Source: an uncultured Chloroflexia bacterium | GTDB taxonomy: Bacteria; Chloroflexota; Limnocylindria; Limnocylindrales; CSP1-4 | NCBI GenBank assembly: GCA_963781705.1 | Contig: CAWAGP010000010.1 | Coordinates: 997,427 to 1,061,426, forward strand | DNA: 64,000 nucleotides | Direction of reading: 5' to 3' | Shown here: positions 16,645 through 50,143 of the stretch, in pieces | Numbering within the stretch: position 1 is the stretch's first letter | Layout: the number at the start of each line of letters is the position of its first letter | Position numbers and translations under genes: made by a program | The notes under the pieces: model-generated | What the model saw: the letters and a program-made list of their open reading frames with translations, nothing else | Told to the model about the DNA's origin: nothing | Database searches by the model: none

Positions 16645-17322
16645 TCAGTGACCCAGGTCGAGCACGACCAGTCGGGCTATGACCACGCCGCAGGCCATCG
16701 CCAGGACGCTGGCCATGGCGACATAGGCATAGGCTCGGTGGCGCAGCGTGGCGCCGCCGTGGCGCTGGCGGTATGTCGCATCGCGCTGCAGGAGGTCGCC
16801 CATCGACCGGTTTTCCAGCGGTGTGCCGTGACGTGCCGACAGGCTGGCAACCGTAACGCGGTGTAGCGCGATGGCAGCCTCGGGCGACTGGTCAGTGGAT
16901 GCCGCTACAAGGCCATCTCGGCAGATTTCGACACCGGTCGGAAAGAAGGTGGCCACCACGGCACCGTCTGAGAAGACACTGTGGCAGGCCATCAACACTC
17001 CACCTTTCAGCGTGTCGGTGGGCACGAGCGAGATGTACGTTGTCGTGGGCCGTCCGATCAGGGCCCATTCGAAGCGACGTCGTCGTCCTGACAGCAACGC
17101 TGCGCGAACGCCGATAGCGCTGAAGCCGGACTGCTCGAGCCGCGCCACTAGATCAGCCACGGCAGGCGGCGGGGGCGCAGCCCAGTCGGTCGCGTCAACG
17201 AGCCGGCGTCGCCTGATGCCCAGGTAGATCTGAAGGATCAGCTGCGAGGCAGGCACGAGGCTCACGGCAACGATCAGCAGGGACAGAAGGAGAACGAGAT
17301 CGAGGGTGCTCAGCAGCGGCAT
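16645..17322 (-). CDS. Hypothetical membrane protein. Probable start MPLLSTLDLVLLLSLLIVAVSLV; the ORF track extends it to 17499.
   Basis: Minus-strand ORF 16645..17499. N-terminal TM helix. No recognised family. Divergent from proS. Confidence 0.4.
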   Translation of the reverse strand: MPLLSTLDLVLLLSLLIVAVSLVPASQLILQIYLGIRRRRLVDATDWAAPPPPAVADLVARLEQSGFSAIGVRAALLSGRRRRFEWALIGRPTTTYISLVPTDTLKGGVLMACHSVFSDGAVVATFFPTGVEICRDGLVAASTDQSPEAAIALHRVTVASLSARHGTPLENRSMGDLLQRDATYRQRHGGATLRHRAYAYVAMASVLAMACGVVIARLVVLDLGH

Positions 17323-17561
17323 AGCGGGACCATAGCCGACGGTCGGGGGCTGCGAAAGGCGCCTATGGTCCCGGTGGCGATGCGACCTAGGGACTTCGCG
17401 CCCGCGGTTCCCGCGGTAATTGGCCATGGCGTTGCCGTCCTCAGCGGTCGATGAATACGATCCGCGCCCCTGAAAGCACGGGCGCTGAGTGCCAGGCAAC
17501 GCGGTTGGTCGGTTACGATTACCGCCCCCTCACGACCCCAGACCGTGGAGATCGCGCACCC

Positions 17562-19028
17562 TTGGCCGAGCAGAAGAACCGTTTCGTCACATCGATAACC
17601 GCCCAGTCGGCTGACTTTCCGGCCTGGTACAACGACGTCGTCCTCAAGGCGCAGCTGGCCGACTACTCGCCCGTGCGCGGCTGCATGGTCATTCGGCCGT
17701 ACGGCTATGCCATCTGGGAGTCGATGCGCGACGAGCTCGACCGGCACATCAAGCGGACCGGCCACGAGAACGTCTACTTCCCGCTGTTCGTGCCGCGCAG
17801 CCTGCTCGAAAAGGAAGCTGAGCACGTGGAGGGCTTCAACCCGCAGGTCGCGTGGGTCACCCACGCCGGCGGTGAGGAGCTCAGCGAATGGCTGGCCATC
17901 CGGCCGACCAGCGAGGCGCTCATCTCCGAGGTCGTCAAGGACTGGATCCAGTCGTATCGCGACCTGCCGCTGCTGCTCAACCTATGGAACAACGTGGTCC
18001 GCTGGGAGCTGCGCACGCGTCTCTTCCTGCGCACGGCCGAGTTCCTGTGGCAGGAGGCGCACACCTTCCACGCGACGGAGGAGGAAGCCGCGGACGAGGT
18101 TGCCACAGGTCTCGAGGCGTACCGCGCGGTGTCGGAGGACTGGCTGGCGATCCCGGTGGTCAAAGGCCGCAAGACCGACAACGAGAAGTTCCCGGGCGCC
18201 GTCTACAGCCACTCGATTGAGGCGATGATGCGTGATGGCAAGGCGCTCCAGGCGGGCACCAGCCACATGCTCGGACAGAACTTTGCTCGGGCGGCGGGCA
18301 TCGACTTCCTCGATCGTGACAACGTCCTCAAGGCGCCCTACGGCACGTCATGGGGCTTCTCCACGCGCATGGTCGGCGCGGTGATCATGGCCCACGGCGA
18401 CGACGCCGGGCTGGTGCTGCCGCCCAAGGTGGCGCCGGTGCAGCTGGTGATCGTGCCCATCTTCCGGACCGAGGACGATCGACGGCTGGTTGCCGAGGCG
18501 ATCGAGTCGGTCGAGAAGTCGCTGGCCGACGTCGTGACCGACTCCGGCCCGCTGCGCTGGAAGACCGACTGGCGCGAGGAGTCGCCCGGCTTCAAGTTCA
18601 GCCACTGGGAGTTGCGCGGCGTGCCCTTCCGGCTGGAGGTCGGGCCACGCGACGTGGCCGCCGGCCAGGGCATGCTGGTGCGCCGCGTGGATCGCCAGAA
18701 GTCGAGCATCGCTCTGGCCGCTCTGACGGTCGAGGTGCCGCAGCGGCTCGCCGAATACCAGGGCCTTCTGTTCCAGCGCGCCGTCGATTTCCGTGCGGCA
18801 CATACCCACCTTGCCGACGGCTACGAGGAGTTCAAGGCCGTGCTCGACAAGGAAGGCGGCTTCGTAATGGCGCACTGGTGCGGCAGCGGCGAGTGCGAGA
18901 AGCAGATCAACACCGACACCGGCGCGACCATTCGCGTCGTCCCCTTCGATGCGGCCGATGAACCGGGCAAGTGCCTGGTCGACGGCGAGCCGTCCGCCAG
19001 GCGAGTTTTGTTCGCGCGCGCCTACTGA
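17562..19028 (+). CDS. proS: Proline--tRNA ligase, archaeal/eukaryal-like type (no bacterial INS editing domain; C-terminal Cys-containing domain)
   Basis: FPAWYNDVVLKAQLADYSPVRGCMVIRPYGYAIWESM...YFPLFVP...class II motifs...C-terminal HWCGSGECEKQINTDTGATIRVVPF. TTG start at 17562 with GGAGAT 12 nt upstream; the ORF track begins at 17451. Confidence 0.85.
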   Translation: MAEQKNRFVTSITAQSADFPAWYNDVVLKAQLADYSPVRGCMVIRPYGYAIWESMRDELDRHIKRTGHENVYFPLFVPRSLLEKEAEHVEGFNPQVAWVTHAGGEELSEWLAIRPTSEALISEVVKDWIQSYRDLPLLLNLWNNVVRWELRTRLFLRTAEFLWQEAHTFHATEEEAADEVATGLEAYRAVSEDWLAIPVVKGRKTDNEKFPGAVYSHSIEAMMRDGKALQAGTSHMLGQNFARAAGIDFLDRDNVLKAPYGTSWGFSTRMVGAVIMAHGDDAGLVLPPKVAPVQLVIVPIFRTEDDRRLVAEAIESVEKSLADVVTDSGPLRWKTDWREESPGFKFSHWELRGVPFRLEVGPRDVAAGQGMLVRRVDRQKSSIALAALTVEVPQRLAEYQGLLFQRAVDFRAAHTHLADGYEEFKAVLDKEGGFVMAHWCGSGECEKQINTDTGATIRVVPFDAADEPGKCLVDGEPSARRVLFARAY

Positions 19029-19320
19029 GCCAGCACTGGACGGCGCAGCCTTTCCACGGCGCACTGGGAGTGATGGCGCCGGGGTACCAGCCCGCCCGCG
19101 ACCAGTCGCTGGCCATTCCGCGCCTGGCACGTGCACTCGGACGGGTCTTCCTGCAAACGCGGCCGTTTGCCGACCCCGACACGCAATTCGGCCGCAAACA
19201 CCGGCCTGAACGCCCTCCTGACGGCCGCCGGTCGGCAGAACTGGGCAAAGTCCCGACTGGCAGTCGGAATTCGAGCTGAAGACCACAGGACAGGATCAGA
19301 CATGCTGCCGCCCGGTCCGG
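19015..19320. repeat. Copy A of an ~300-bp diverged direct repeat (about 80% identity to 22080..22390). Starts at the proS stop codon context GCGCGCCTACTGAGC.
   Basis: Manual alignment with 22080..22390. Shared blocks: CGCCCGCGACCAG, CTTCCTGCAAACGC, TTTGCCGACCCCGACACGCAA-TCGGCCGCAA, AAAGTCCCGACTGGC-GTCGGAATTCGAGCTGA, GCTGCCGCCCGGTC. Confidence 0.75.
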
Positions 19321-19329
19321 GGGGCACGC

Positions 19330-19562
19330 TCAGCTGGGCACGCTCAGCTGGGCTATCGTCGTCGCAGCTGATCTCACAGCCGACGCTCGTCCGGGCCGCG
19401 GCGCTGATGACCTCGGCCGTGCCGGTCGTCGTGTTCCTCTTCGCCCAGCGCGCTTTCATGCGTGGCGTGGTGGTGACCGGCATGGATAAGCGACGCGCCC
19501 GATATCCTGCGGCGGGGACGGTTAGGTACAGGTCGGAACAGGATGCGCTTCGGGCACTTTGA
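19330..19562 (+). pseudogene. C-terminal remnant (about 50-60 aa) of a carbohydrate ABC-transporter permease (MalG/UgpE-like). No upstream part of the gene is present.
   Basis: ...LISQPTLVRAAALMTSAVPVVVFLFAQRAFMRGVVVTGMDK matches the conserved C-terminal end of sugar ABC permeases (...IPVVVLFLFLQRYFVQG...GMKG). It sits in ORF 19131..19562, upstream sequence is repeat-derived non-coding. Contains the 15-bp tandem duplication GGGCACGCTCAGCTG x2 at about 19321-19350. Confidence 0.65.
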
Positions 19563-21987
19563 CGACGCGGCACGCGAGTACGTCATCTCCCAACCTGATA
19601 CGCCGCTGCCCTGGATCAACTACCTCGGGAGCGAGGACTACTTCGGCCTCATCTCGAATACGGCCGGCGGCTACTCGTTCTATCGCGACGCGCGCCTGCG
19701 GCGGCTGACCCGCTATCGCTACAACAACGCGCCGCTGGATCTTGGCGGTCGCTACCTCTACGTGCGCGACACGGACGACGGTGAGTACTGGAGCCCGAGC
19801 TGGCAGCCGGTGCAGCGGCCGATCGAGGACTACAGCTGCCGCCACGGCCTGGGCTACACCGTCATCGCTTCGCGCTACCACGGGATTGGCATCGAGACCT
19901 GCTACTTCGTGCCACTCGGTCAGACGCTCGAGATCTGGCGTACACGCATTACCAACGAGCGCGACGCCGACGCCCGACTGTCGCTCTTCAGCGCGATCGA
20001 GTTCTGCCTGTGGGACGCGCAGGAAGACGCCACCAACTTCCAGCGCAACTATTCGACCGGCGAGGTCGAGGTAGCCGAAGGGGTCATCTACCACAAGACC
20101 GAATACCGGGAACGGCGCGACCATTTCGCCTACTTCGCTTGCTCTGAGCCGCTGGCCGGCTTCGACACCCAGCGCGACTCCTTCCTGGGGCCGTACCGCG
20201 GCTGGGACCGGCCGTTGACGGTCGAGTCCGGCCGGTCGACAAATTCGATCGCCCATGGCTGGCAGCCGATGGGCGCACATCACGTCGAGCTGCAGCTCGC
20301 GCCGCACGAGACGCGTGAGGTCATCTTCGTGCTCGGCTACGCGGAAAACCCCACCGATGACAAGTTCGATCCGGTGGGCTCGCAAACGATCAACAAGCGC
20401 CGTGTTCGGCCGACCATCGCGCGCTATCTGCAGCCCGGCATGGTGGCTGAGGCGCTCGACGGCCTGCGCACCCGCTGGGACGAGCTGCTGGCTGGACTGC
20501 AGGTAAAGACCGGCAATGAGCATGTCGACCGGATGGTCAACATCTGGAATCCGTACCAGTGCATGGTGACCTTCAACCTTTCGCGCTCGGCCTCGCTGTT
20601 CGAGTCGGGCATCGGCCGGGGGATGGGCTTCCGCGACTCGAACCAGGACCTGCTCGGTTTCGTGCACATGGTTCCGGGACGGGCCCGCGAGCGGATCCTG
20701 GACATCGCCGCAACGCAATTGCCGAACGGCGGCGCCTATCACCAGTACCAGCCATTGACGAAGCGCGGCAACGACGCCGTCGGCTCCGGCTTCAACGACG
20801 ACCCGGCCTGGCTGGTCCTGGCGGTTTCGGCCTACCTGCGCGAGACCGGCGACTTCTCCATCCTCGACGAGCAGGTGCCGTTCGATAACCAGCCTGGCAC
20901 TGAAACCCGGCTGTACGGGCATCTCGAACGCGCCATCAGCTACACCCTCGAACGCCTTGGGCCGCACGGCCTGCCACTCATCGGCCGCGCCGACTGGAAC
21001 GACTGTCTCAACCTGAACTGCTTCTCCGACACGCCCGGCGAGTCCTTCCAGACGACCGAGAACCGAGCCGGCGGGGTAGCCGAGTCGGTGTTCATTGCCG
21101 GGCTGTTCGTCGAGGCGGCAAACGAGATGGCCGCCATCGCCGAGCGAACGGCCGACGTGTCCGACGCAGCCCGCTACCGCGCCGCCGCGCAGCAGATGGT
21201 TGCCGCCGTGGAGCGCGATGGCTGGGATGGCGCGTGGTTCCGGCGAGCCTTCGATTTCTTTGGCCACCCGGTCGGTTCGTCGACCAATGAGGAGGGCCAG
21301 ATCTTCATCGAGCCGCAGGGCATCTGCGTCCTTGCCGGAATCGGCGTCGGCGACGGCCGCGCAACGACGGCACTGGAGTCCGTGCGCGAGCGCCTGGCGA
21401 CCAAACATGGCATTCGGCTGCAGCAGCCCGCCTACTCGCATTACTACCTCGAGCTGGGCGAGATTTCCTCATACCCGCCGGGTTACAAGGAGAACGGCGG
21501 CATCTTTTGTCACACCAACCCGTGGCTGATGATCGCCGAGGCGGTCGTCGGTAACGCCGATGGAGCGCTCGACTATTACCTGCGCATCAACCCGTCGGCG
21601 CGCGAAGAGATCTCGGAGATTCATCGCTGCGAGCCGTACGTCTACGCCCAGATGATTGCCGGCCCGGACGCGCCGACCCATGGCGAGGCCAAGAACTCGT
21701 GGCTGACCGGCACAGCGGCGTGGAACCTCGTCGCCATCAGCCAGTGGATCCTGGGCATCCGGCCGGCGTTTGATGGGCTGGAAGTAGTGCCCGTGGTACC
21801 AGATCGCTGGCCGGGCTTCAGCGCCATTCGCCGGTTCCGCGGCGTGGACTACAAGATCGAGGTTCATCGGGCCGGACCGGGTCAGACCGTCACCCTGGTT
21901 GTGGACGGTTCACCGGTCTCAGGCACCCTGGTACCCGCTCCCGCCAGGGGCGTGACGACCGTGTCGGTCGAGGCGACGATCGGCTGA
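19543..21987 (+). CDS. GH94 glycoside phosphorylase (cellobiose/cellodextrin or chitobiose phosphorylase family), 814 aa, intact
   Basis: [62 protein letters not shown]... plus length and internal catalytic-domain conservation typical of cellobiose phosphorylase. Confidence 0.85.
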   Translation: [814 protein letters not shown]

Positions 21988-22079
21988 GTGTCGCCGTCGG
22001 CGATGCGTCGGCGATGCCCGCACGCGCTGCGACAGCGGCAGCGACGCGCCTCAGTCCGACGCTCCCAGAAGGTTAGAAC

Positions 22080-22390
22080 GGCCCGCAGCTGCGCCGCGCG
22101 CCTACTGAGCAGGCGATCCACGGCGCATTTGCAGTTCTGGCGCCGGGTCGCCCGCCGCCCGCGACCAGCCCATGGCCCAATCCGCGCCTGGCGCGCGCAC
22201 TCGGATGGCTCTTCCTGCAAACGCCGCTATTTGCCGACCCCGACACGCAACTCGGCCGCAAGCAGCGCTTTGAGGGCCCTCGCGAGGGCCACCTGGTCGT
22301 AGAACTGCGCAAAGTCCCGACTGGCGGTCGGAATTCGAGCTGACTACCAAAGGCGACGATCGGAAACGCTGCCGCCCGGTCGAGACCGTG
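22080..22390. repeat. Copy B of the ~300-bp diverged direct repeat. Preceded by a degenerate copy of the proS 3' end (21988-22090).
   Basis: See copy A. Both copies start with GCGCGCCTACTGAGC and end with GCTGCCGCCCGGTC. B lies between the GH94 stop and the DUF554 stop. Confidence 0.75.
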
Positions 22391-22397
22391 AGCCCGG

Positions 22398-23132
22398 CTA
22401 TGCGAGGGCCGCGCGTACGGCGGCGGCGGCCCACACGAAAACCGGTGCCAGCACCAGCGCGGGCAGGAAGTTGGCGAGCCTCAGGCGGCGGACTTCGAGC
22501 AGGCGCAGGCCGACGCCGATGAGGATCAGCCCGCCGACCGCGCTGGTGGCGTCGATCGACAGCTGATCGAGCCCGCCGCCCGCCAGCCACGCGATTGCCG
22601 CGATGCCACCCTGGACGACCAGCACCGTGGCGGCGGCAAGGTAGACGCCGGCACCCAACGCGGCGGCGAAGGCCATGCTGGCGACGCCGTCGAGCAGGCT
22701 CTTGACCGCCAGCAGCTGGATGTCGCCGGTCAAGCCGTTCTGGATGGAACCCAGGATGGTCAGCGGTCCTACGCAGAAGACCAGGCTCGCCGTCACGAAC
22801 GCCTCGCTCACTCGCGATGCCTGATCGCCGCGCGCGAGGCGGCGCTGGAACCATTCGCCCAGGGCGTCCAAGCGGTCGGACAAGCGCAGCAGCTCGCCGA
22901 CGAGCGCACCGACGAGAAGCGAACCAAGCACGACCAGGTCGGTCCCCGCCGGCTGGCTGCTGTCGAGCAGCAGCCGCAGCGCGAGGGCAATGCCGATCAC
23001 CACCGTGAATAGCCCCAGCCCGTCGGTCAGCGTCTGCTGGATGCGTGGCGATATCCGCGCCCCGAAGAAGAGACCGACCGTCGTCCCGATCAAGACGGTG
23101 GCGACGTTGAGCAGGGTGCCGCTCAGGAACAT
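22398..23132 (-). CDS. DUF554 (YqgA-like) membrane protein
   Basis: MFLSGTLLNVATVLIGTTVGLFFGARISPRIQQTLTDGLGLFTVVIGIALALRLL... multi-TM, characteristic DUF554 N-terminus. Confidence 0.75.
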   Translation of the reverse strand: MFLSGTLLNVATVLIGTTVGLFFGARISPRIQQTLTDGLGLFTVVIGIALALRLLLDSSQPAGTDLVVLGSLLVGALVGELLRLSDRLDALGEWFQRRLARGDQASRVSEAFVTASLVFCVGPLTILGSIQNGLTGDIQLLAVKSLLDGVASMAFAAALGAGVYLAAATVLVVQGGIAAIAWLAGGGLDQLSIDATSAVGGLILIGVGLRLLEVRRLRLANFLPALVLAPVFVWAAAAVRAALA

Positions 23133-23134
23133 CG

Positions 23135-24505
23135 CTAGCGGCCCGCGGTCTCCAGTTCGCGAGCGGCCTCGGTGAATAGCCCGCCCATCACCCGCGTGGT
23201 CGTCGGGAAGGCGGTTATGGTGTCGGCCAGCACGTCGATCGGCGTCCGCGTCTTGACCGCCAGCACGGCCATGTGGATGGCCTCGCCGGCGCCCGGGCCG
23301 GCGATGAAAGCCCCGGCCAACGAACGCGATGAACGATCGACGACGATCGTCGCGTGTCCGGCGGCCTCCACGACGTAGCCCTTGGCGCTGGTGGCCAGGT
23401 CGGTGGTCTTCTCGAACGCGTCCAGTCCCTGGGCGAGCGCTTCGTCGAGGCGCAGGCCGACTCCGGCCACCTCCGGATCCGTGTATACCGCGCGCGGGAT
23501 GGCGCGGTAGTCCGGGCGCACTTCCTCGCCGAGCGCGATACGGACGACGATCTCGCCCTGGTAGTGCGCCAGGTGCGTGTGCATCTCCGGTCCGGCCGGA
23601 TCACCGATCACGAATGTGGCGGGAGCGATGCGCAGCTGCTCGTCCGGCTTCACACGGCCGTGGTCGAGCTCGACGCCCAGCGTCTCCAGCCCAAGCCGCG
23701 CCAGTGGTGCGGTCCGGCCGATGGCGAACATCACCTCGTGCCCGTCGAGGGTCGAGCCGTCATCCAGGAAGATCCGATGCGCGCCGTCATCGCCGCCGTT
23801 GCCGTCGATCCGCACGGCCCGCCGGCCCAGGTGCAGGGCGACCCCGTCCCGCCGCAGCCCGTCGGCGATGGCCGCCGAATTGCGGGGGTGGTCGCGATGG
23901 TGCACGCGCTCCTGCGGGTGGACCAGGCGCACGGTTACCCCGTAGCGCGCGAAGACCTGGGCGAGTTCCAGTCCGGTCGGGCCCCCGCCCAGGACGACCA
24001 GGCTGCGCGGCAGCGTGCGGGCGCTGGTGGCTTCGCGGTTGGACCACGGGCGAATGCTGTCCAGCCCGGGCAGTTCGGGGACCGTCGAATTGGACCCAAC
24101 GGCGATGATCAAGTTGCGGCCGACGATCTCGCGCGATCCGCCGTCAGCCAGCTCGACCGCGACGTGGCCCGGTCCGGTCACGCTGGCCGTGCCGCGGACA
24201 ACCTCCGCGCCGGCATCCTGGAGGCGGGCGATGTGGCCGCTGTCATCGGGCCACGCACGGTGCTCGCGGTTGATGATGTAGTCGCGGAAGTCGGAGGCGC
24301 GTGGCCATGCGTAGTCGCCACCTATGGCGTGGACACCAGCAGCATGCAGCAGCGCCTTTGACGGCATGCACGCCCAGAATGGGCACGATCCGCCGAACAG
24401 CTCGCGCTCTACGACCGCAACGTGGGCACCACGCCGCAGACCCTCGTGGGCCGCGGCCTCACCGGCCGCGCCGGCGCCGACGATGACGAAATCGAACCCC
24501 TCCAT
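23135..24505 (-). CDS. FAD-dependent pyridine nucleotide-disulfide oxidoreductase (dihydrolipoamide dehydrogenase / mercuric reductase-like family). Probable start MEGFDFVIVGAGAAG; the ORF track extends to 24661.
   Basis: FDFVIVGAGAAG (FAD-binding GxGxxG), redox-active GGSCPFWACMPSK, second Rossmann LVVLGGGPTGLELAQ, C-terminal dimerisation domain. Confidence 0.75.
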   Translation of the reverse strand: MEGFDFVIVGAGAAGEAAAHEGLRRGAHVAVVERELFGGSCPFWACMPSKALLHAAGVHAIGGDYAWPRASDFRDYIINREHRAWPDDSGHIARLQDAGAEVVRGTASVTGPGHVAVELADGGSREIVGRNLIIAVGSNSTVPELPGLDSIRPWSNREATSARTLPRSLVVLGGGPTGLELAQVFARYGVTVRLVHPQERVHHRDHPRNSAAIADGLRRDGVALHLGRRAVRIDGNGGDDGAHRIFLDDGSTLDGHEVMFAIGRTAPLARLGLETLGVELDHGRVKPDEQLRIAPATFVIGDPAGPEMHTHLAHYQGEIVVRIALGEEVRPDYRAIPRAVYTDPEVAGVGLRLDEALAQGLDAFEKTTDLATSAKGYVVEAAGHATIVVDRSSRSLAGAFIAGPGAGEAIHMAVLAVKTRTPIDVLADTITAFPTTTRVMGGLFTEAARELETAGR

Positions 24506-24733
24506 GCGGCGCCAACGGTAACTGGTCTGGCCGCCCGGCGGTAGGTCGGCTGGCCGCGCGGCGCGCCAGATCCGACCACCTCGGCCGAAGGGCCGATCGG
24601 GTCGCTCGGTGTATACTCCCGGCTGCATATCTGGCCGCCGCGGAACGTGGGTGACCCCCACGTTTCTTTGTGATCAGAGGGAGAACCTGGCCGAGCGGGG
24701 GAAACGACTGGCGGGACGAAAGGAGGGCGCAGC

Positions 24734-45906: not shown

Positions 45907-46413
45907 ATGAGTACCATCAACGGCACGCTAACTAATCAGGAGAGCCGCCAGGCGCTGCTGGACGATGTGCTGAGCGAGTTGACGTCGATCAGCTTCCGGG
46001 ACTGGCTGGGTGCGCTCAAGCGCTGGCAGGAGGGGGCCCTCAGCCTCGTGCACATGCACGTGCTGATGCTGCTGCGCTCGAACGGGCCTTTGCCCATGTC
46101 ACGCCTGGCCGACCTGCTCGACGTCTCGGTCGCCAGTGCAACCGGCATCATCGACCGCATTGAGAAGCGCGGCATGGTCGAGCGGCGTCACAGCGAGACC
46201 GACCGGCGCATCGTGGAGGTCCACCTGACGGACACGGCATGGACCGTCTTCGGCGCGATGGACGCCGGTCGTCGCGAGCGCATGGCGCTGCTGATCGGCG
46301 GCATGAGCGATGAGGAACTGACGGCGTTGCGAACCGGCCTGCGTGCCATGCGCGCGGCCCGCCAGCGATTGAGCGCCGACGCTGGGCCGGAACCGGAGGC
46401 GCGCCCGGCTTGA
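45907..46413 (+). CDS. MarR family transcriptional regulator
   Basis: 168 aa. LSLVHMHVLMLLRSNGPLPMSRLADLLDVSVASATGIIDRIEKRGMVERRHSETDRRIVEVHLT, winged-helix MarR. Confidence 0.85.
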   Translation: MSTINGTLTNQESRQALLDDVLSELTSISFRDWLGALKRWQEGALSLVHMHVLMLLRSNGPLPMSRLADLLDVSVASATGIIDRIEKRGMVERRHSETDRRIVEVHLTDTAWTVFGAMDAGRRERMALLIGGMSDEELTALRTGLRAMRAARQRLSADAGPEPEARPA

Positions 46414-48149
46414 TCAAGCTGCTGCGGACCTTCCTGCGCCCCTACCGGGCACAGATCCTGGTTGTTCTTGTCCTGCTCTTCATCCAGGCGCTGACAAACC
46501 TGTATCTACCCGACCTGAACGCCGAGATCATCAACAACGGCGTGTCGACCGGCGACACCAACTACATCGTCAACACCGGCGCACTGATGCTCGGCGTGAC
46601 CGTCCTGCTCGGCATCACCTCGGTCGTGGCCGTCTTCCTCGCCGCTCGCGTGGCGATGGGCTTCGGGCGCGACGTGCGCGGCGAGGTATTCCGCAAGGTC
46701 GGGTCGTTTTCGCAGGTCGAGATGAATCGCTTCGGCACCGCGTCGCTGATCACGCGTAACACCAACGACGTGCAGCAGGTGCAGATGGTCGTGTTCATGG
46801 GCCTGACCGTCATCCTGCTGGCGCCGATCATGGGCATCGGCGGCATCATCATGGCCGTTCGCCAGGACGTGCCGCTTTCGAGCCTGCTGGTCGTGATCCT
46901 GCCGATCATGTTCGTATTCATCGGGCTGGTCATGCGCCAGGCGATCCCGCTGTTCCGGGCTATGCAGGTCAAGATCGACCGCATCAACCAGGTCATGCGC
47001 GAGGCGCTCGCCGGCGTCCGCGTCATCCGTGCCTTCGTGCGCGTCGACCACGAAGAGAAGCGCTTCGACGTCGCCAACCAGGACCTGTTCGAGACGGCCC
47101 TGCGCGTAAACCGCCTGTTCGCGGTGACGATCCCGACGATGATGATCATCCTCAACCTGTCGCAGGTCGCGGTGATGTGGTTCGGCGCCGAACGCATATC
47201 CGCCGGCGGCATGCCCATCGGCAACCTGACCGCCTTCCTGACCTACCTGATGCAGATCCTCTTCTCAGTGCTGATGGCAGTGCTGATGTTCATCTTCGTG
47301 CCGCGCGCGGCGGTCTCGGCCGACCGCATCCGCGAGGTGCTCGACACCCACCCGATGATCAGCGACCCGGTCGAGCCAGTCTCGATAGTGCCCGCGCGCG
47401 GCGCCCGGATCGAGTTCCGCAACGTCCAGTTCGGCTATCCCGGTGCCGAGCAGCCGGTGCTGCACGACATCTCGTTCGTGGCTGAGCCGGGCCAGACGAC
47501 GGCCATCGTGGGCAGCACCGGCAGCGGCAAGTCGACACTCATCAACCTCATCCCGCGCTTCTACGACGTGACCGGCGGCGAGGTGCTGATCGACGGCATC
47601 GACGTGCGCCAGCTGCGTCGCGAAGACCTGTGGCGGATGATCGGCGTCGTGCCGCAGAACGCCTTCCTGTTCAGTGGCACAGTGGCTTCCAACCTGCGCT
47701 ACGGCGACGAACAGGCGACCGACGACGACCTGCAGCACGCGCTCGAGATTGCCCAGGGCAGCGAGTTCGTGGCCGAGATGACCGGCGGCCTCGAGGCAGA
47801 GATCGACCAGGGCGGCAGCAATGTCTCCGGTGGCCAGCGTCAGCGGCTGGCCATTGCCCGGGCGCTGGTCAAGCGCGCGCCGCTGTACGTTTTCGACGAT
47901 AGCTTCTCCGCACTCGACTTCCGCACCGACGCGCGCCTGCGGGCGGCGCTGCGCCGCGAGCTGGCCGGCGCGACGGCGATCATCGTCGCCCAGCGCGTGG
48001 GCACCATTCTCAACGCCGAGCGCATCGTGGTCATGGACGAAGGTCGCGTGGTGGGTGTCGGCACGCATAGCGAATTGATGACGAGCTGCGAGACGTATCG
48101 CGAAATCGTCTACTCGCAGCTCACCCCGGCCGAGGCGCAGGCCGCATGA
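46410..48149 (+). CDS. ABC transporter (type I exporter: 6-TM domain fused to ATP-binding domain), half of a heterodimeric efflux pump
   Basis: TMD followed by GSTGSGKST (Walker A), LSGGQRQRLAIARAL (signature), LYVFDDSFSALD (Walker B). Start overlaps the marR stop. Confidence 0.9.
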   Translation: MIKLLRTFLRPYRAQILVVLVLLFIQALTNLYLPDLNAEIINNGVSTGDTNYIVNTGALMLGVTVLLGITSVVAVFLAARVAMGFGRDVRGEVFRKVGSFSQVEMNRFGTASLITRNTNDVQQVQMVVFMGLTVILLAPIMGIGGIIMAVRQDVPLSSLLVVILPIMFVFIGLVMRQAIPLFRAMQVKIDRINQVMREALAGVRVIRAFVRVDHEEKRFDVANQDLFETALRVNRLFAVTIPTMMIILNLSQVAVMWFGAERISAGGMPIGNLTAFLTYLMQILFSVLMAVLMFIFVPRAAVSADRIREVLDTHPMISDPVEPVSIVPARGARIEFRNVQFGYPGAEQPVLHDISFVAEPGQTTAIVGSTGSGKSTLINLIPRFYDVTGGEVLIDGIDVRQLRREDLWRMIGVVPQNAFLFSGTVASNLRYGDEQATDDDLQHALEIAQGSEFVAEMTGGLEAEIDQGGSNVSGGQRQRLAIARALVKRAPLYVFDDSFSALDFRTDARLRAALRRELAGATAIIVAQRVGTILNAERIVVMDEGRVVGVGTHSELMTSCETYREIVYSQLTPAEAQAA

Positions 48150-50143
48150 GCGGGCAGTTCGCCCGCGGTCGGGGCGCGGCTGGCAGTAGGCCCGCGGCCG
48201 GGGGCGGGCCGCGGCGCGGTGGTTTCGGACCGGGTCACATGATGATGGGCGGCGCGCCGCCGGAGAAACCGAAGGACTTCGGCAATTCCTTCCGGCGGTT
48301 GATCGGCCGGCTCCGCCCAGAGCGTGCCCGGCTGGTGCTGGTCATCGCGCTGGCCGTCGTGAGTGTCATCTTCGCGGTGCTCGGACCGAAGATCCTGGGC
48401 GACGCCACGAACATAATCTTCTCGGGCGTCATCAGCCAGAACCTGCCCGCGGGCGTAAGCCAGGCGGACATCGAGGCCGGCCTGCGCGCCAGCGGGCAAA
48501 ATCAGCTCGCCGACATGCTCAGCGGCATGACGCTCACCCCGGGCCTGGGCATCGATTTCGGCGCCCTGGCCAACATCCTCGTGGTGCTCATCGGCATCTT
48601 CGTCGTCAGCGCCCTGTTCGCCTGGGCACAGGCCTACATCATGGCCGGCGTCACTCAGCGCACGGTCTACCGGCTGCGCCAGGACATCGACGTCAAGCTG
48701 GGCAAGCTGCCCCTCAGGTACTTCGACGACCACTCGCGCGGCGACCTGCTCAGCCGCGTGACGAACGACATCGACAACATCGGCCAGACACTCCAGCAGA
48801 GCCTGACCCAGCTCATCACCTCGATCCTGACGGTGATCGGCGTGCTCGTGATGATGCTCACCATCAGCTGGGAGCTGGCGCTCATATCGGTCCTCGCGGT
48901 GCCCGCCGCACTGATCGTGACCCTGTTCATCATCCGCCGCTCACAGCGCCAGTTTGTCGCCCAGTGGGCCTCGACCGGCGCGCTCAACGGACAGGTCGAG
49001 GAGATGCATACCGGCCACAACATCGTGACCGTCTTCGGCCGCCACAAGGAGGCGATGGAGCGCTTCACAGAAGAGAACGAGCGCCTCTATGACGCCAGCT
49101 ACAGGGCGCAGTTCATCTCCGGGATCATCCAGCCGGCGATGAACCTGATCAGCAACTTCAACTATGTCGCCATCGCCGTCATCGGCGGCGTGCGCGTGGC
49201 GAGCGGTCAGATGTCGCTGGGCGACGTGGTTGCGTTCATCCAGTATTCGCGCCAGTTTACGCAGCCCATCGTGCAGGCGGCCAGCATCGCCAACGTGCTG
49301 CAGTCGGCGGTTGCTTCGGCCGAGCGCGTGTTCGAGTTGCTCGACGAGGGCGAGTTGACGCAGCAAACGGACAATCCGCGGCAGCTGGGCGACGTTGTCG
49401 GACGAGTCGGCTTCGACGATGTGTCCTTCCGTTACCGGCCCGAAGCACCGCTCATCGAGCATCTCAGCCTGGTCGCCGAGCCGGGTGCCACGGTGGCCAT
49501 CGTTGGCCCGACGGGCGCCGGCAAGACGACGCTGGTCAACCTGCTGATGCGCTTCTATGAGATCGACGGAGGGAGCATCACGGTCGACGGCATCGACACG
49601 CGCGACGTTACCCGCGAGGACCTGCGGCGCGAGTTTGGCATGGTCCTGCAGGACACGTGGCTGTTCCACGGCACGATCCGCGAGAACATCGCCTACGGCC
49701 GCGAGGATGCGACCGAGGAGCAGATCGTCGCCGCCGCCGAGGAGGCCCACGTCGACCACTTCGTGCGCACCCTGCCGGCCGGCTACGAGACGGTCGTCGA
49801 CGACGATGCGACCAACCTGTCACAGGGCGAGAAGCAGCTGATGACCATTGCACGGGCCTTCCTCGCCGACCCGCGCATCCTCATCCTCGATGAGGCGACG
49901 AGCTCGGTCGACACTCGTACCGAAGTGCTCATCCAGCGCGCCATGGCCAAGCTGATGGCCGGCCGGACGACCTTCGTCATCGCGCACCGCCTATCGACCA
50001 TTCGCGATGCCGACCTGATCGTGGTCATGGATCACGGCAAGATCGTCGAGACGGGCACGCATACCGAACTGCTCGACCGGCGCGGCTTCTACTACGAGCT
50101 CTATCAGAGCCAGTTCGTGGAGGCGCTCGCCGACGTCGCCTGA
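48146..50143 (+). CDS. ABC transporter (type I exporter, TMD-NBD), partner half. Gly/Arg-rich N-terminal 45 aa may be untranslated (alternative start about 48239, MMMGG...).
   Basis: GPTGAGKTT (Walker A), LSQGEKQLMTIARAF (signature), ILILDEATSSVD (Walker B). ATGA overlap with the upstream gene stop. Confidence 0.9.
   Translation: MSGQFARGRGAAGSRPAAGGGPRRGGFGPGHMMMGGAPPEKPKDFGNSFRRLIGRLRPERARLVLVIALAVVSVIFAVLGPKILGDATNIIFSGVISQNLPAGVSQADIEAGLRASGQNQLADMLSGMTLTPGLGIDFGALANILVVLIGIFVVSALFAWAQAYIMAGVTQRTVYRLRQDIDVKLGKLPLRYFDDHSRGDLLSRVTNDIDNIGQTLQQSLTQLITSILTVIGVLVMMLTISWELALISVLAVPAALIVTLFIIRRSQRQFVAQWASTGALNGQVEEMHTGHNIVTVFGRHKEAMERFTEENERLYDASYRAQFISGIIQPAMNLISNFNYVAIAVIGGVRVASGQMSLGDVVAFIQYSRQFTQPIVQAASIANVLQSAVASAERVFELLDEGELTQQTDNPRQLGDVVGRVGFDDVSFRYRPEAPLIEHLSLVAEPGATVAIVGPTGAGKTTLVNLLMRFYEIDGGSITVDGIDTRDVTREDLRREFGMVLQDTWLFHGTIRENIAYGREDATEEQIVAAAEEAHVDHFVRTLPAGYETVVDDDATNLSQGEKQLMTIARAFLADPRILILDEATSSVDTRTEVLIQRAMAKLMAGRTTFVIAHRLSTIRDADLIVVMDHGKIVETGTHTELLDRRGFYYELYQSQFVEALADVA

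Follow-up and report, generated by a model that had tools for sequence, protein, structure and literature searches.

The gene for prolyl-tRNA synthetase, proS, is followed in this uncultured Chloroflexota genome by an intact cellobiose phosphorylase gene that lies between two diverged copies of a sequence of about 290 bp. The question is how this arrangement arose, whether by integration of a circular DNA through a single (Campbell-type) crossover, as proposed in a preliminary description, or by the decay of an operon that was already in place. The window, that is, the whole stretch of 64,000 nucleotides, was analyzed together with the corresponding loci of relatives in Chloroflexota, Ca. Limnocylindria, the site of interest being that between the convergent proS and DUF554 genes. 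The features of the locus are listed in Table 1.

Table 1. Features of the proS-DUF554 locus, in window coordinates.
Feature	Position	Strand	Evidence or remark
proS, archaeal-type prolyl-tRNA synthetase	17451..19028	+	Pfam tRNA-synt_2b, HGTP_anticodon, ProRS-C_1
16-mer CGCGCGCCTACTGAGC, copy 1	19015..19030	+	last 4 proS codons, stop, GC
Repeat unit E, copy A	19031..19317	+	non-coding
Segment found in copy A only, 53 nt	19318..19370	+	terminates at deletion joint J1
Permease P2 remnant, last 40 codons	19371..19490	+	85% aa identity (E 9e-17) to the second permease of relatives
GH94 cellobiose phosphorylase, intact, 814 aa	19543..21987	+	Pfam, PDB matches, dN/dS
Start of downstream X292 gene, then deletion joint J3	21984..21997	+	collinear with L001
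GH116 3'-end remnant and spacer, small tandem insertions	22022..22067	+	
Second DUF554 3'-end stub	22068..22097	-	AAQLRAVLTF vs L001 AAQVRAALTF*; stop mutated
16-mer copy 2, proS tail stub	22095..22110	+	3-nt overlap (CGC) with DUF554 stub, joint J2
Repeat unit E, copy B	22111..22381	+	carries 16-nt perfect palindrome GGCCCTCGCGAGGGCC
16-nt spacer, E copy B to resident DUF554 stop	22382..22397	.	
Resident DUF554 gene	22398..23132	-	C-terminus ..AAAVRAALA*
Pyridine-nucleotide disulfide oxidoreductase	23135..24661	-	

The direct repeat

Comparison of the window against itself gave a direct repeat of 81.5% identity over 275 columns (19045-19317 vs 22109-22381; E 5e-67), with a z of 115 relative to dinucleotide shuffles. 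The diverged repeat described earlier is therefore real, except that copy B spans 22095-22381 and does not start at 22080. The repeat unit, E, has a copy number of two within the 64-kb window, no third copy being found in the self-comparison. Both copies are headed, as had been described, by a sequence holding a TGA, in copy A the stop codon of proS; this sequence is the exact 16-mer CGCGCGCCTACTGAGC (19015-19030 and 22095-22110). A 16-nt indel lies directly 3' of the 16-mer and is accounted for by slippage between two ACGGCGCA octamers. The longest run identical in the two E copies is 21 nt, and the mismatches are scattered at random between them without clustering. In relatives with an empty site, proS and DUF554 overlap tail to tail at their stops, and the 16-mer sequence is that overlap; the 16-mer and the first ~12 nt of E copy A (CTACTGAGCCAG) together match the ancestral DUF554 end, as in L086. 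The segment found in copy A only contains a 14-nt tandem duplication (GCACGCTCAGCTGG twice, at 19324-19351). The true start of proS is probably at about 17565, since the homologs are 486-490 aa long.

E is neutral, non-coding DNA, probably a leftover of rearrangement without a function of its own. A protein-coding fragment was rejected, as there was no codon periodicity and no synonymous excess in any frame, and Pfam gave no match to E in any frame. An Rfam search of 17000-24000, which covers E, returned no match, even at E<=1. E was also rejected as a decayed 3' region of DUF554: an nhmmer profile built from six DUF554 genes was silent over E and picked up only a separate 30-nt stub. When E was compared with the proS-LacI intergenic region of relatives, the alignments scored below those of shuffles (z<0); the L001 and L004 intergenic regions match each other with z=7.9. 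E was absent from 91 related or fetched loci, and comparison with plasmids, phages and viral contigs was negative as well. A metagenome 20-mer scan for E homologs gave 3 matches, all of them chance, and none of the loci compared has E downstream of proS. In the MAFFT alignment with the proS-LacI intergenic region, the TTTGCCGAC of E was set beneath the -35-like box of the relatives, and the palindrome of E(B) beneath their operator.

Remnants of a cellobiose-utilisation islet

The GH94 product is full length, with PF06165 at residues 21-265 (9e-89) and PF17167 at residues 312-738 (8e-157). Its best PDB matches are the cellobiose phosphorylases 3rrs, 2cqs and 3qde (~1100 bits, end to end), as compared with 465 bits for the chitobiose phosphorylase 1v7v and 167 bits for 4zle. 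The dN/dS of 0.12 against L001 indicates purifying selection and, by implication, suggests that function has been kept. The gene is an orphan immediately 3' of proS. There is no terminator-like site between the two genes (19029-19542) and the LacI promoter and operator are deleted, so that transcription of GH94 probably depends on read-through from proS.

In the GH94 tree, the window gene is sister to that of L001 with 100% bootstrap. The distance between the two (87.3% aa, dS 0.61) is that of the backbone (85.6% aa; ProRS dS 0.71), and the GC3 of 0.85 falls within the backbone range of 0.80-0.89. A compositional anomaly was therefore rejected, and the composition check suggested in the preliminary description gave no signal of import. 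An apparent incongruence between GH94 and the backbone, with the window nearer L001 than L004, was dismissed because per-gene identities show L004 to be more distant genome-wide. A GH94 distance equal to that of the backbone, combined with normal composition, favours vertical inheritance plus decay.

A search of the relatives for empty sites downstream of proS, also suggested earlier, was productive: the site is empty in about seven genomes (L010, L012, L086/87, L089, L090 and L091), where the proS and DUF554 stops overlap or stand 3-36 nt apart. In L001 and L004 it is occupied by a LacI-ABC transporter-GH94-X292(-GH116) operon in which LacI, the SBP and two permeases are all intact. Relatives thus have this cassette in this position with its transporter genes intact, an arrangement that the preliminary description had named as refuting its own reading. 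No integrase or recombinase was found in the window islet, the flanking genes or the relatives' islets, the full islet of L001 included, and the right junctions of L001 and L004 carry no significant proS-end stub that could represent an att site or target-site duplication. The backbone tree groups L001, the window, L010 and L087 at 100%, and joins the window to the empty-site pair at 90% with three genes and 50% with seven; its bootstrap labels were read after re-rooting, and only groupings that agree with pairwise identities were used. The split between the window, L010 and L001 is nearly a trichotomy (86.6% vs 85.6% aa), so that the support for one gain with later losses is modest.

The window is collinear with L001 except for the deleted genes. 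In the permease remnant, the stop has changed from TGA to CGA, so that the frame continues to 19571, and its pN of 0.080 indicates relaxed constraint, the corresponding codons giving 0.011 in the comparison of L001 with L004. Joint J3 (21998-22021) removed X292 and most of GH116, about 3.1 kb in L001. The region of the GH116 remnant shares the 16-nt exact match ACGCGCTGCGACAGCG with L001, and 21988-22090 as a whole aligns with the L001 junction between the GH116 and DUF554 ends (score 48 vs 22.5 +/- 4.7; 0 of 3000 random segments reach 48). A decayed proS 3' end had been proposed for 21988-22090 and is not borne out in 21988-22094, the local alignment score being 11 against 11.0 +/- 1.8 for random genomic segments. 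The earlier statement that only a permease fragment and an intact GH94 gene lie between the copies is right as to these two but incomplete, because this alignment reveals stubs of GH116 and DUF554 as well. Taken together, the comparison shows the locus to be a deletion derivative of an L001-type cellobiose-utilisation islet. As a case of operon loss it is ordinary and well preserved, the phosphorylase gene being the sole survivor.

Origin of the two junction units

Joint J2 (about 22092-22098) fuses the 30-nt DUF554 3' stub to a second proS tail and its downstream DNA, with a microhomology of 3-4 nt (CGC overlap) that is weak evidence of illegitimate joining in DNA of 68% GC. The order of elements is proS tail, E(A), operon remnant, DUF554' stub, proS tail', E(B) and resident DUF554. 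This arrangement shows that the locus consists of two tandem junction units, one with the operon remnant and one almost empty, and that the DNA reaching from the proS tail to the DUF554 tail has at some time been duplicated or rejoined. J2 is the novel junction expected of a tandem duplication, of the integration of a circle (Campbell) or of a one-sided illegitimate integration. The two DUF554 ends differ: the stub is of the L001 type (..LTF), and the resident gene has the ancestral type of end (..ALA*) less one codon, the ends of L010, L086 and L012 being ..ALAQ*. This difference fits the involvement of a second allele, or else a composite structure of greater age.

The best explanation, to which we give a slightly better than even chance as a whole, is that the islet was inherited vertically and then underwent duplicative rearrangement, deletions and drift. 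The islet would have passed vertically from an ancestor common with L001. A lineage-specific duplicative rearrangement would have fused a 3' end of DUF554 with the final 13 nt of proS at J2, yielding the second copy of the proS tail and E. Deletions of LacI to permease-2 (J1), of X292 to GH116 (J3) and of nearly the whole second unit may have followed, while the E copies drifted apart to a K of about 0.21. That drift would be about as old as the decay of the P2 stub (~0.10 per E copy vs ~0.07 per site of excess non-synonymous change). The sister lineages L010 and L086/L087 would have lost the islet entirely. A pure in-situ tandem duplication of an L001-type locus, however, predicts the same type of DUF554 end in both units, and two types are seen; the 19% divergence of E could equally reflect divergence between a donor and a recipient. 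The loss of the islet from L010 and L086, with their clean overlapping stops, would moreover require precise excision or allelic replacement.

That a close relative supplied a second, diverged allele by integration is regarded as unlikely, though with an appreciable chance. It could have occurred by a Campbell single crossover or, more plausibly, by homology-facilitated illegitimate recombination (HFIR). The circle would carry the proS tail, E, the operon and the DUF554 stub; in the HFIR form, one end would be anchored in a conserved flanking gene and J2 would be the illegitimate joint at the other. In either case one intergenic DNA would be present in its donor and recipient forms as E(A) and E(B). 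J2 with its 3-nt microhomology is the type of junction that such events produce, and HFIR that leaves displaced 'orphan' 3' stubs is documented (PMC5361080, which cites PMC122324 and PMC122325). The two types of DUF554 end and the 19% divergence of E point the same way, as does the resident DUF554-PyrRedox backbone, common only to empty-site genomes (among relatives, the oxidoreductase is shared with L010, L086 and L087 alone). The duplicative joint, with a DUF554 stub that fits a second allele, is the part of the original integration proposal that is supported. Nothing marks the cassette as an import, GH94 having no phylogenetic or compositional signal of transfer. An integrase is absent, and the decayed proS end is not there. 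A recipient allele that already had E is needed and was not observed, every empty-site relative being without it, and a single crossover is mechanistically unfavourable in a 300-bp stretch of 81% identity whose longest identical run is 21 nt. A gradient of informative sites along proS (p=0.03) was considered as a mosaic breakpoint left by an HFIR anchor. The gradient also appears with control references, indicating that it is caused by L010 itself, and with relatives as distant as these it gives no support to a breakpoint.

It is most improbable, and already largely refuted, that E is a functional or mobile unit such as a small RNA, terminator module, MITE-like repeat or att-like module. Its position exactly where members of the clade differ in carrying the islet would suit such a unit, as would its two conserved hairpins. 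One of these, CCGACTGGC(A/G)GTCGG, occurs in both copies, and the other is a 16-nt palindrome that is perfect in E(B) (GGCCCTCGCGAGGGCC, 22275-22290). Yet the palindrome has decayed in copy A, the mismatches are random, the 3-5 compensatory pairs or double changes are uninformative with only two sequences compared, and the Rfam result and the confinement of E to two copies in 64 kb speak against it. No terminal inverted repeats were seen when the E termini were read by eye, and no inverted pair matches the E ends. The source is a contig of 1.2 Mb from a MAG and the structure formally equals one haplotype followed by another, so that operon-bearing and operon-less strain haplotypes might have been concatenated in tandem by the assembly. 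The chance of such an artefact is slimmer still: J2 links non-homologous positions (DUF554 -30 to proS -13), whereas haplotype collapse expects a homologous switch point, and the decay of the stubs, with mutated stops, small tandem insertions and an internal 3.1-kb deletion, fits real age. It is conceivable, but quite improbable, that the proS/DUF554 junction is a dedicated hotspot of gain and loss in Ca. Limnocylindria, with the duplicated proS tail and E as an integrase-free module for the insertion and precise excision of a cellobiose islet and the window, which retains the composite DUF554'|proS' joint, as its only surviving intermediate.

Comparison with known systems and significance

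The LacI-regulated ABC-transporter/GH94 operons of cellulolytic and saprophytic bacteria have their canonical layout in L001, L004 and L088, with LacI and a palindromic operator, an SBP, two BPD_transp_1 permeases and then GH94. In contrast, the window has lost the regulator, the binding protein and the two permeases, together with GH116 farther downstream. The closest stub arrays are the V. cholerae T6SS immunity arrays and the Rhs/CDI orphan 3' ends attributed to HFIR (PMC5361080), which likewise have a unit upstream of a displaced older unit, short duplicated flank stubs and an illegitimate joint. The window differs from them in having a single duplication and no selection logic of toxin and immunity, and transfer and its direction are unproven. 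As in Campbell or site-specific islands that integrate at gene 3' ends and duplicate them, the variable DNA is flanked by direct repeats that take in the final codons and stop of the target gene, and some relatives have an empty site where others have an occupied one. Unlike such islands, the window has no integrase, excisionase or mobility gene, and in place of a short identical core it has repeats of 300 bp that are 81% identical. Moreover, the second copy of the 16-mer sits inside the window locus beside the DUF554 stub, and the right junctions of L001 and L004 have no significant proS stub. Tandem segmental duplication with deletion, or reductive operon decay, provides a novel head-to-tail joint, pseudogene stubs, filler and short tandem duplications at deletion joints, and one selected gene that is retained, all of which are seen here; the two types of DUF554 3' end are unlike a simple in-situ duplication.

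The locus opens no new mechanism and no long-standing question. As a warning for annotation, GH94 has no dedicated uptake system here, and the locus alone is therefore no evidence of growth on cellobiose. It is a clear, datable snapshot of the dismantling of a sugar-utilisation operon in an uncultured freshwater and soil lineage of Chloroflexota, with the full, partly decayed and fully lost states present at one site across relatives, and in the window the catabolic enzyme has been kept after the loss of its regulator and transporter.

The repeat and the DNA that it brackets

The diverged direct repeat of about 300 bp noted in the preliminary description is real. E(A), the copy beside proS, and E(B), the copy beside the resident DUF554 gene, are 81.5% identical in a 275-column alignment (E 5e-67; z=115 against shuffles), and self-comparison of the entire 64-kb window gave no third copy. 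Each copy is headed by the exact 16-mer CGCGCGCCTACTGAGC; in copy A, proS ends on the TGA within it. The 16-mer is followed by a 16-nt indel placed between two ACGGCGCA octamers, so slippage accounts for it. The sole other internal repeat, 47478-47680 and 49472-49674 (68% identity), consists of the ATPase domains of two adjacent ABC_membrane+ABC_tran genes of a heterodimeric exporter (46410-50143) and has no relation to E.

Features of the proS-nusA region in window coordinates
Feature	Position	Strand	Basis
Archaeal-type ProRS (proS)	17451-19028		Pfam
16-mer, copy A	19015-19030		exact match
E(A)	19045-19317		window self-comparison
Permease stub	19371-19490		85% identical (E 9e-17) to the C-terminal 40 residues of permease 2 of relatives
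GH94, intact, 814 aa	19543-21987		Pfam
GH116-stop/DUF554-stop junction remnant	22022-22093		alignment to L001
DUF554' stub (second 3' end)	22068-22097	minus	peptide match to L001
16-mer, copy B	22095-22110		exact match
E(B)	22109-22381		window self-comparison
DUF554 (resident)	22398-23132	minus	Pfam
Pyridine-nucleotide disulfide oxidoreductase	23135-24661	minus	Pfam
nusA	from 24734		Pfam

All tests point to E being neutral non-coding DNA. Mismatches by codon position were 5/9/5, 5/3/7 and 3/4/5; synonymous change was enriched in no frame and no frame had a Pfam match. The longest identical run was 21 nt (P=0.49) and the mismatches are randomly spread, thus giving no sign of constraint. A known RNA was ruled out by RNA-family search, and a decayed DUF554 by comparison with DUF554 genes. 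Nor does E resemble the proS-LacI promoter/operator region of the relatives (z<0), whereas those of the related loci L001 and L004 have GCTTGACAAC...GTGAGAGCGCTCTCAC in common (z=7.9). Homologs of E were absent from 91 other fetched loci, plasmids, phages and viral contigs, and a 20-mer scan of metagenomes returned chance matches only.

The permease fragment and the intact GH94 gene described earlier were both borne out. E(A) is followed by 53 nt holding a 14-nt tandem duplication, then by the permease stub, GH94 and a deletion joint. Beyond the joint lie the GH116 stub, the DUF554' stub, a second proS tail (proS'), E(B), 16 nt and the resident DUF554. Loss of the permease stop (TGA to CGA) has opened a 90-codon reading frame (19302-19571) that extends from an ATG within E(A) across the stub and 29 nt into GH94; this frame may be meaningless or may affect GH94 translation.

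A decayed proS 3' end had also been proposed upstream of copy B, but 21988-22094 scores 11 against the proS 3' end, no better than random genomic DNA (11.0 +/- 1.8). Collinearity with L001 reaches the first bases of the next gene, X292, 10 nt beyond the GH94 stop, and then breaks. The junction remnant aligns with the L001 GH116/DUF554 junction with a score of 48 versus 22.5 +/- 4.7, a score reached by none of 3000 random segments, and includes a 16-nt exact match. The DUF554' stub encodes AAQLRAVLTF, compared with AAQVRAALTF* at the C-terminus of L001 DUF554, and shares 3 nt with the second 16-mer. By these alignments, the supposed proS pseudo-end is GH116 and DUF554 debris.

Read from its first ATG, proS itself encodes 525 aa; homologs have 486-490 aa, and similarity begins around residue 39 (..AEQKNRFVTSIT). 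Translation probably starts about 110 nt further downstream (17451-17565). Between ispG and proS, a 284-aa minus-strand ORF (16645-17499) has no Pfam match; in its place L001, L090 and L091 have a small plus-strand YjbR gene, and L086 a 255-aa ORF without a recorded match. The interval looks like a second variable spot adjoining proS.

Empty and occupied sites in related genomes

Source names place the organism in Chloroflexota, Ca. Limnocylindria. Neighbourhoods of proS were gathered by exact-protein look-ups and one genome-collection scan. Two states, empty and occupied, were found between convergent proS and DUF554. At the empty sites of L010, L012 and L086/L087 both stop codons overlap in CTACTGA (a 7-nt overlap in L010, L012 and L086), which identifies the window 16-mer as the ancestral proS/DUF554 junction. 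L089, L090 and L091 are also empty, with stops 7, 3 and 36 nt apart (L089:10442-10485, L090:10440-10510, L091:7665-7765); in L089 they are pushed apart by a 14-nt tandem duplication, CTACTGAGCCACGT and CTACTGAAC.

The occupied site of L001 contains LacI-SBP-permease-permease-GH94-X292-GH116, that of L004 the same set without GH116, and the short contig L088 SBP-P1-P2-GH94-X287. The preliminary description had listed such an arrangement in relatives, with the transporter genes intact, as refuting its interpretation. Three blocks present in L001 are missing from the window, which also has the E copies; otherwise the two are collinear. In both proS-LacI intergenic regions (L001:4975-5005, L004:11600-11630) a TTGACA box precedes the perfect 16-nt palindrome GTGAGAGCGCTCTCAC, a probable LacI operator for the cellobiose operon; the window lacks this palindrome.

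Gene content between DUF554 and nusA differs among these genomes as well. The disulfide oxidoreductase is common only to the window, L010 and L086/L087, which fits a grouping of the window with L010/L087. L089-L091 have an unrelated gene of about 320 aa with no Pfam match on record (L089:11209-12171, L090:11211-12185, L091:8670-9620), and L001, L004 and L012 have none.

Origin of the arrangement

The GH94 tree joined the window to L001 with 100% bootstrap and then to L088 (99%); the L004 protein belongs to another subclade, and L004 is the genome further removed, as in M50 protease (74.5% versus 83.0%). The backbone agrees: the seven flanking window proteins are 85.6% identical to L001 and 86.6% to L010. 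The backbone tree supported L001, window, L010 and L087 at 100%, and the window with the empty-site pair at 90% (3 genes) or 50% (7 genes). The dS to L001 was 0.61 for GH94; that of ProRS was 0.71 to both L001 and L010. GC3 of GH94 is 0.85, within the backbone range of 0.80-0.89. Phylogeny, dS and GC3 gave no mark of foreign origin in GH94, and these comparisons favor an inherited rather than an imported cassette. On the simplest reading, the cassette was gained once before L001 and the window diverged, was lost completely in L010/L087 and has partly decayed in the window.

A site that is simply occupied or empty cannot contain the DUF554'/proS' joint, which would represent the head-to-tail junction of a duplicated interval reaching from the last 13 nt of proS to the last ~30 nt of DUF554. 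Duplication could have occurred in situ, by circle integration, or by recombination that is homologous on one side and illegitimate on the other (HFIR), a mechanism summarised in PMC5361080. Three deletions would have followed, removing LacI to permease 2, X292 to GH116, and nearly all of the second unit. In the permease stub, with its mutated stop, pN was 0.080 versus 0.011 for the same codons between L001 and L004, showing relaxed constraint. The excess, about 0.07 per site, is comparable in magnitude with the divergence of each E copy (K 0.21 / 2), compatible with one rearrangement period in the window lineage.

The DUF554' stub is of the L001 type (..LTF), whereas the resident gene ends in ..AALA* with the stop CTA, the ancestral type of the empty sites. 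This mismatch argues against a purely in-situ history and keeps an event between two alleles, including the Campbell-type integration originally proposed, plausible though less likely than not. A duplicative joint is present, but the operon that holds it is resident in the clade and is being lost; it is no freshly imported cassette. Neither L001 nor L004 has a detectable proS stub at its right junction. When proS was examined for a breakpoint, the gradient seen along it was a property of L010 itself. The L010 proS 3' half (L010:10700-11452) stands unusually far from every other member of the clade (71% versus 76-82% over the last 300 nt) and may be a recombination tract beside its empty site.

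The remaining phosphorylase

GH94 matches solved cellobiose phosphorylases at about 1100 bits and, by sequence, is a bona fide cellobiose phosphorylase. Its dN/dS against L001 was 0.12, and the gene is still under purifying selection. It is now without regulator, operator or transporter at the locus. There is no terminator-like site between proS and GH94, so read-through from proS would be the likeliest source of its expression. The original observation was largely right and its interpretation partly so. The locus is an instance of known processes, namely segmental duplication, deletion and operon decay.
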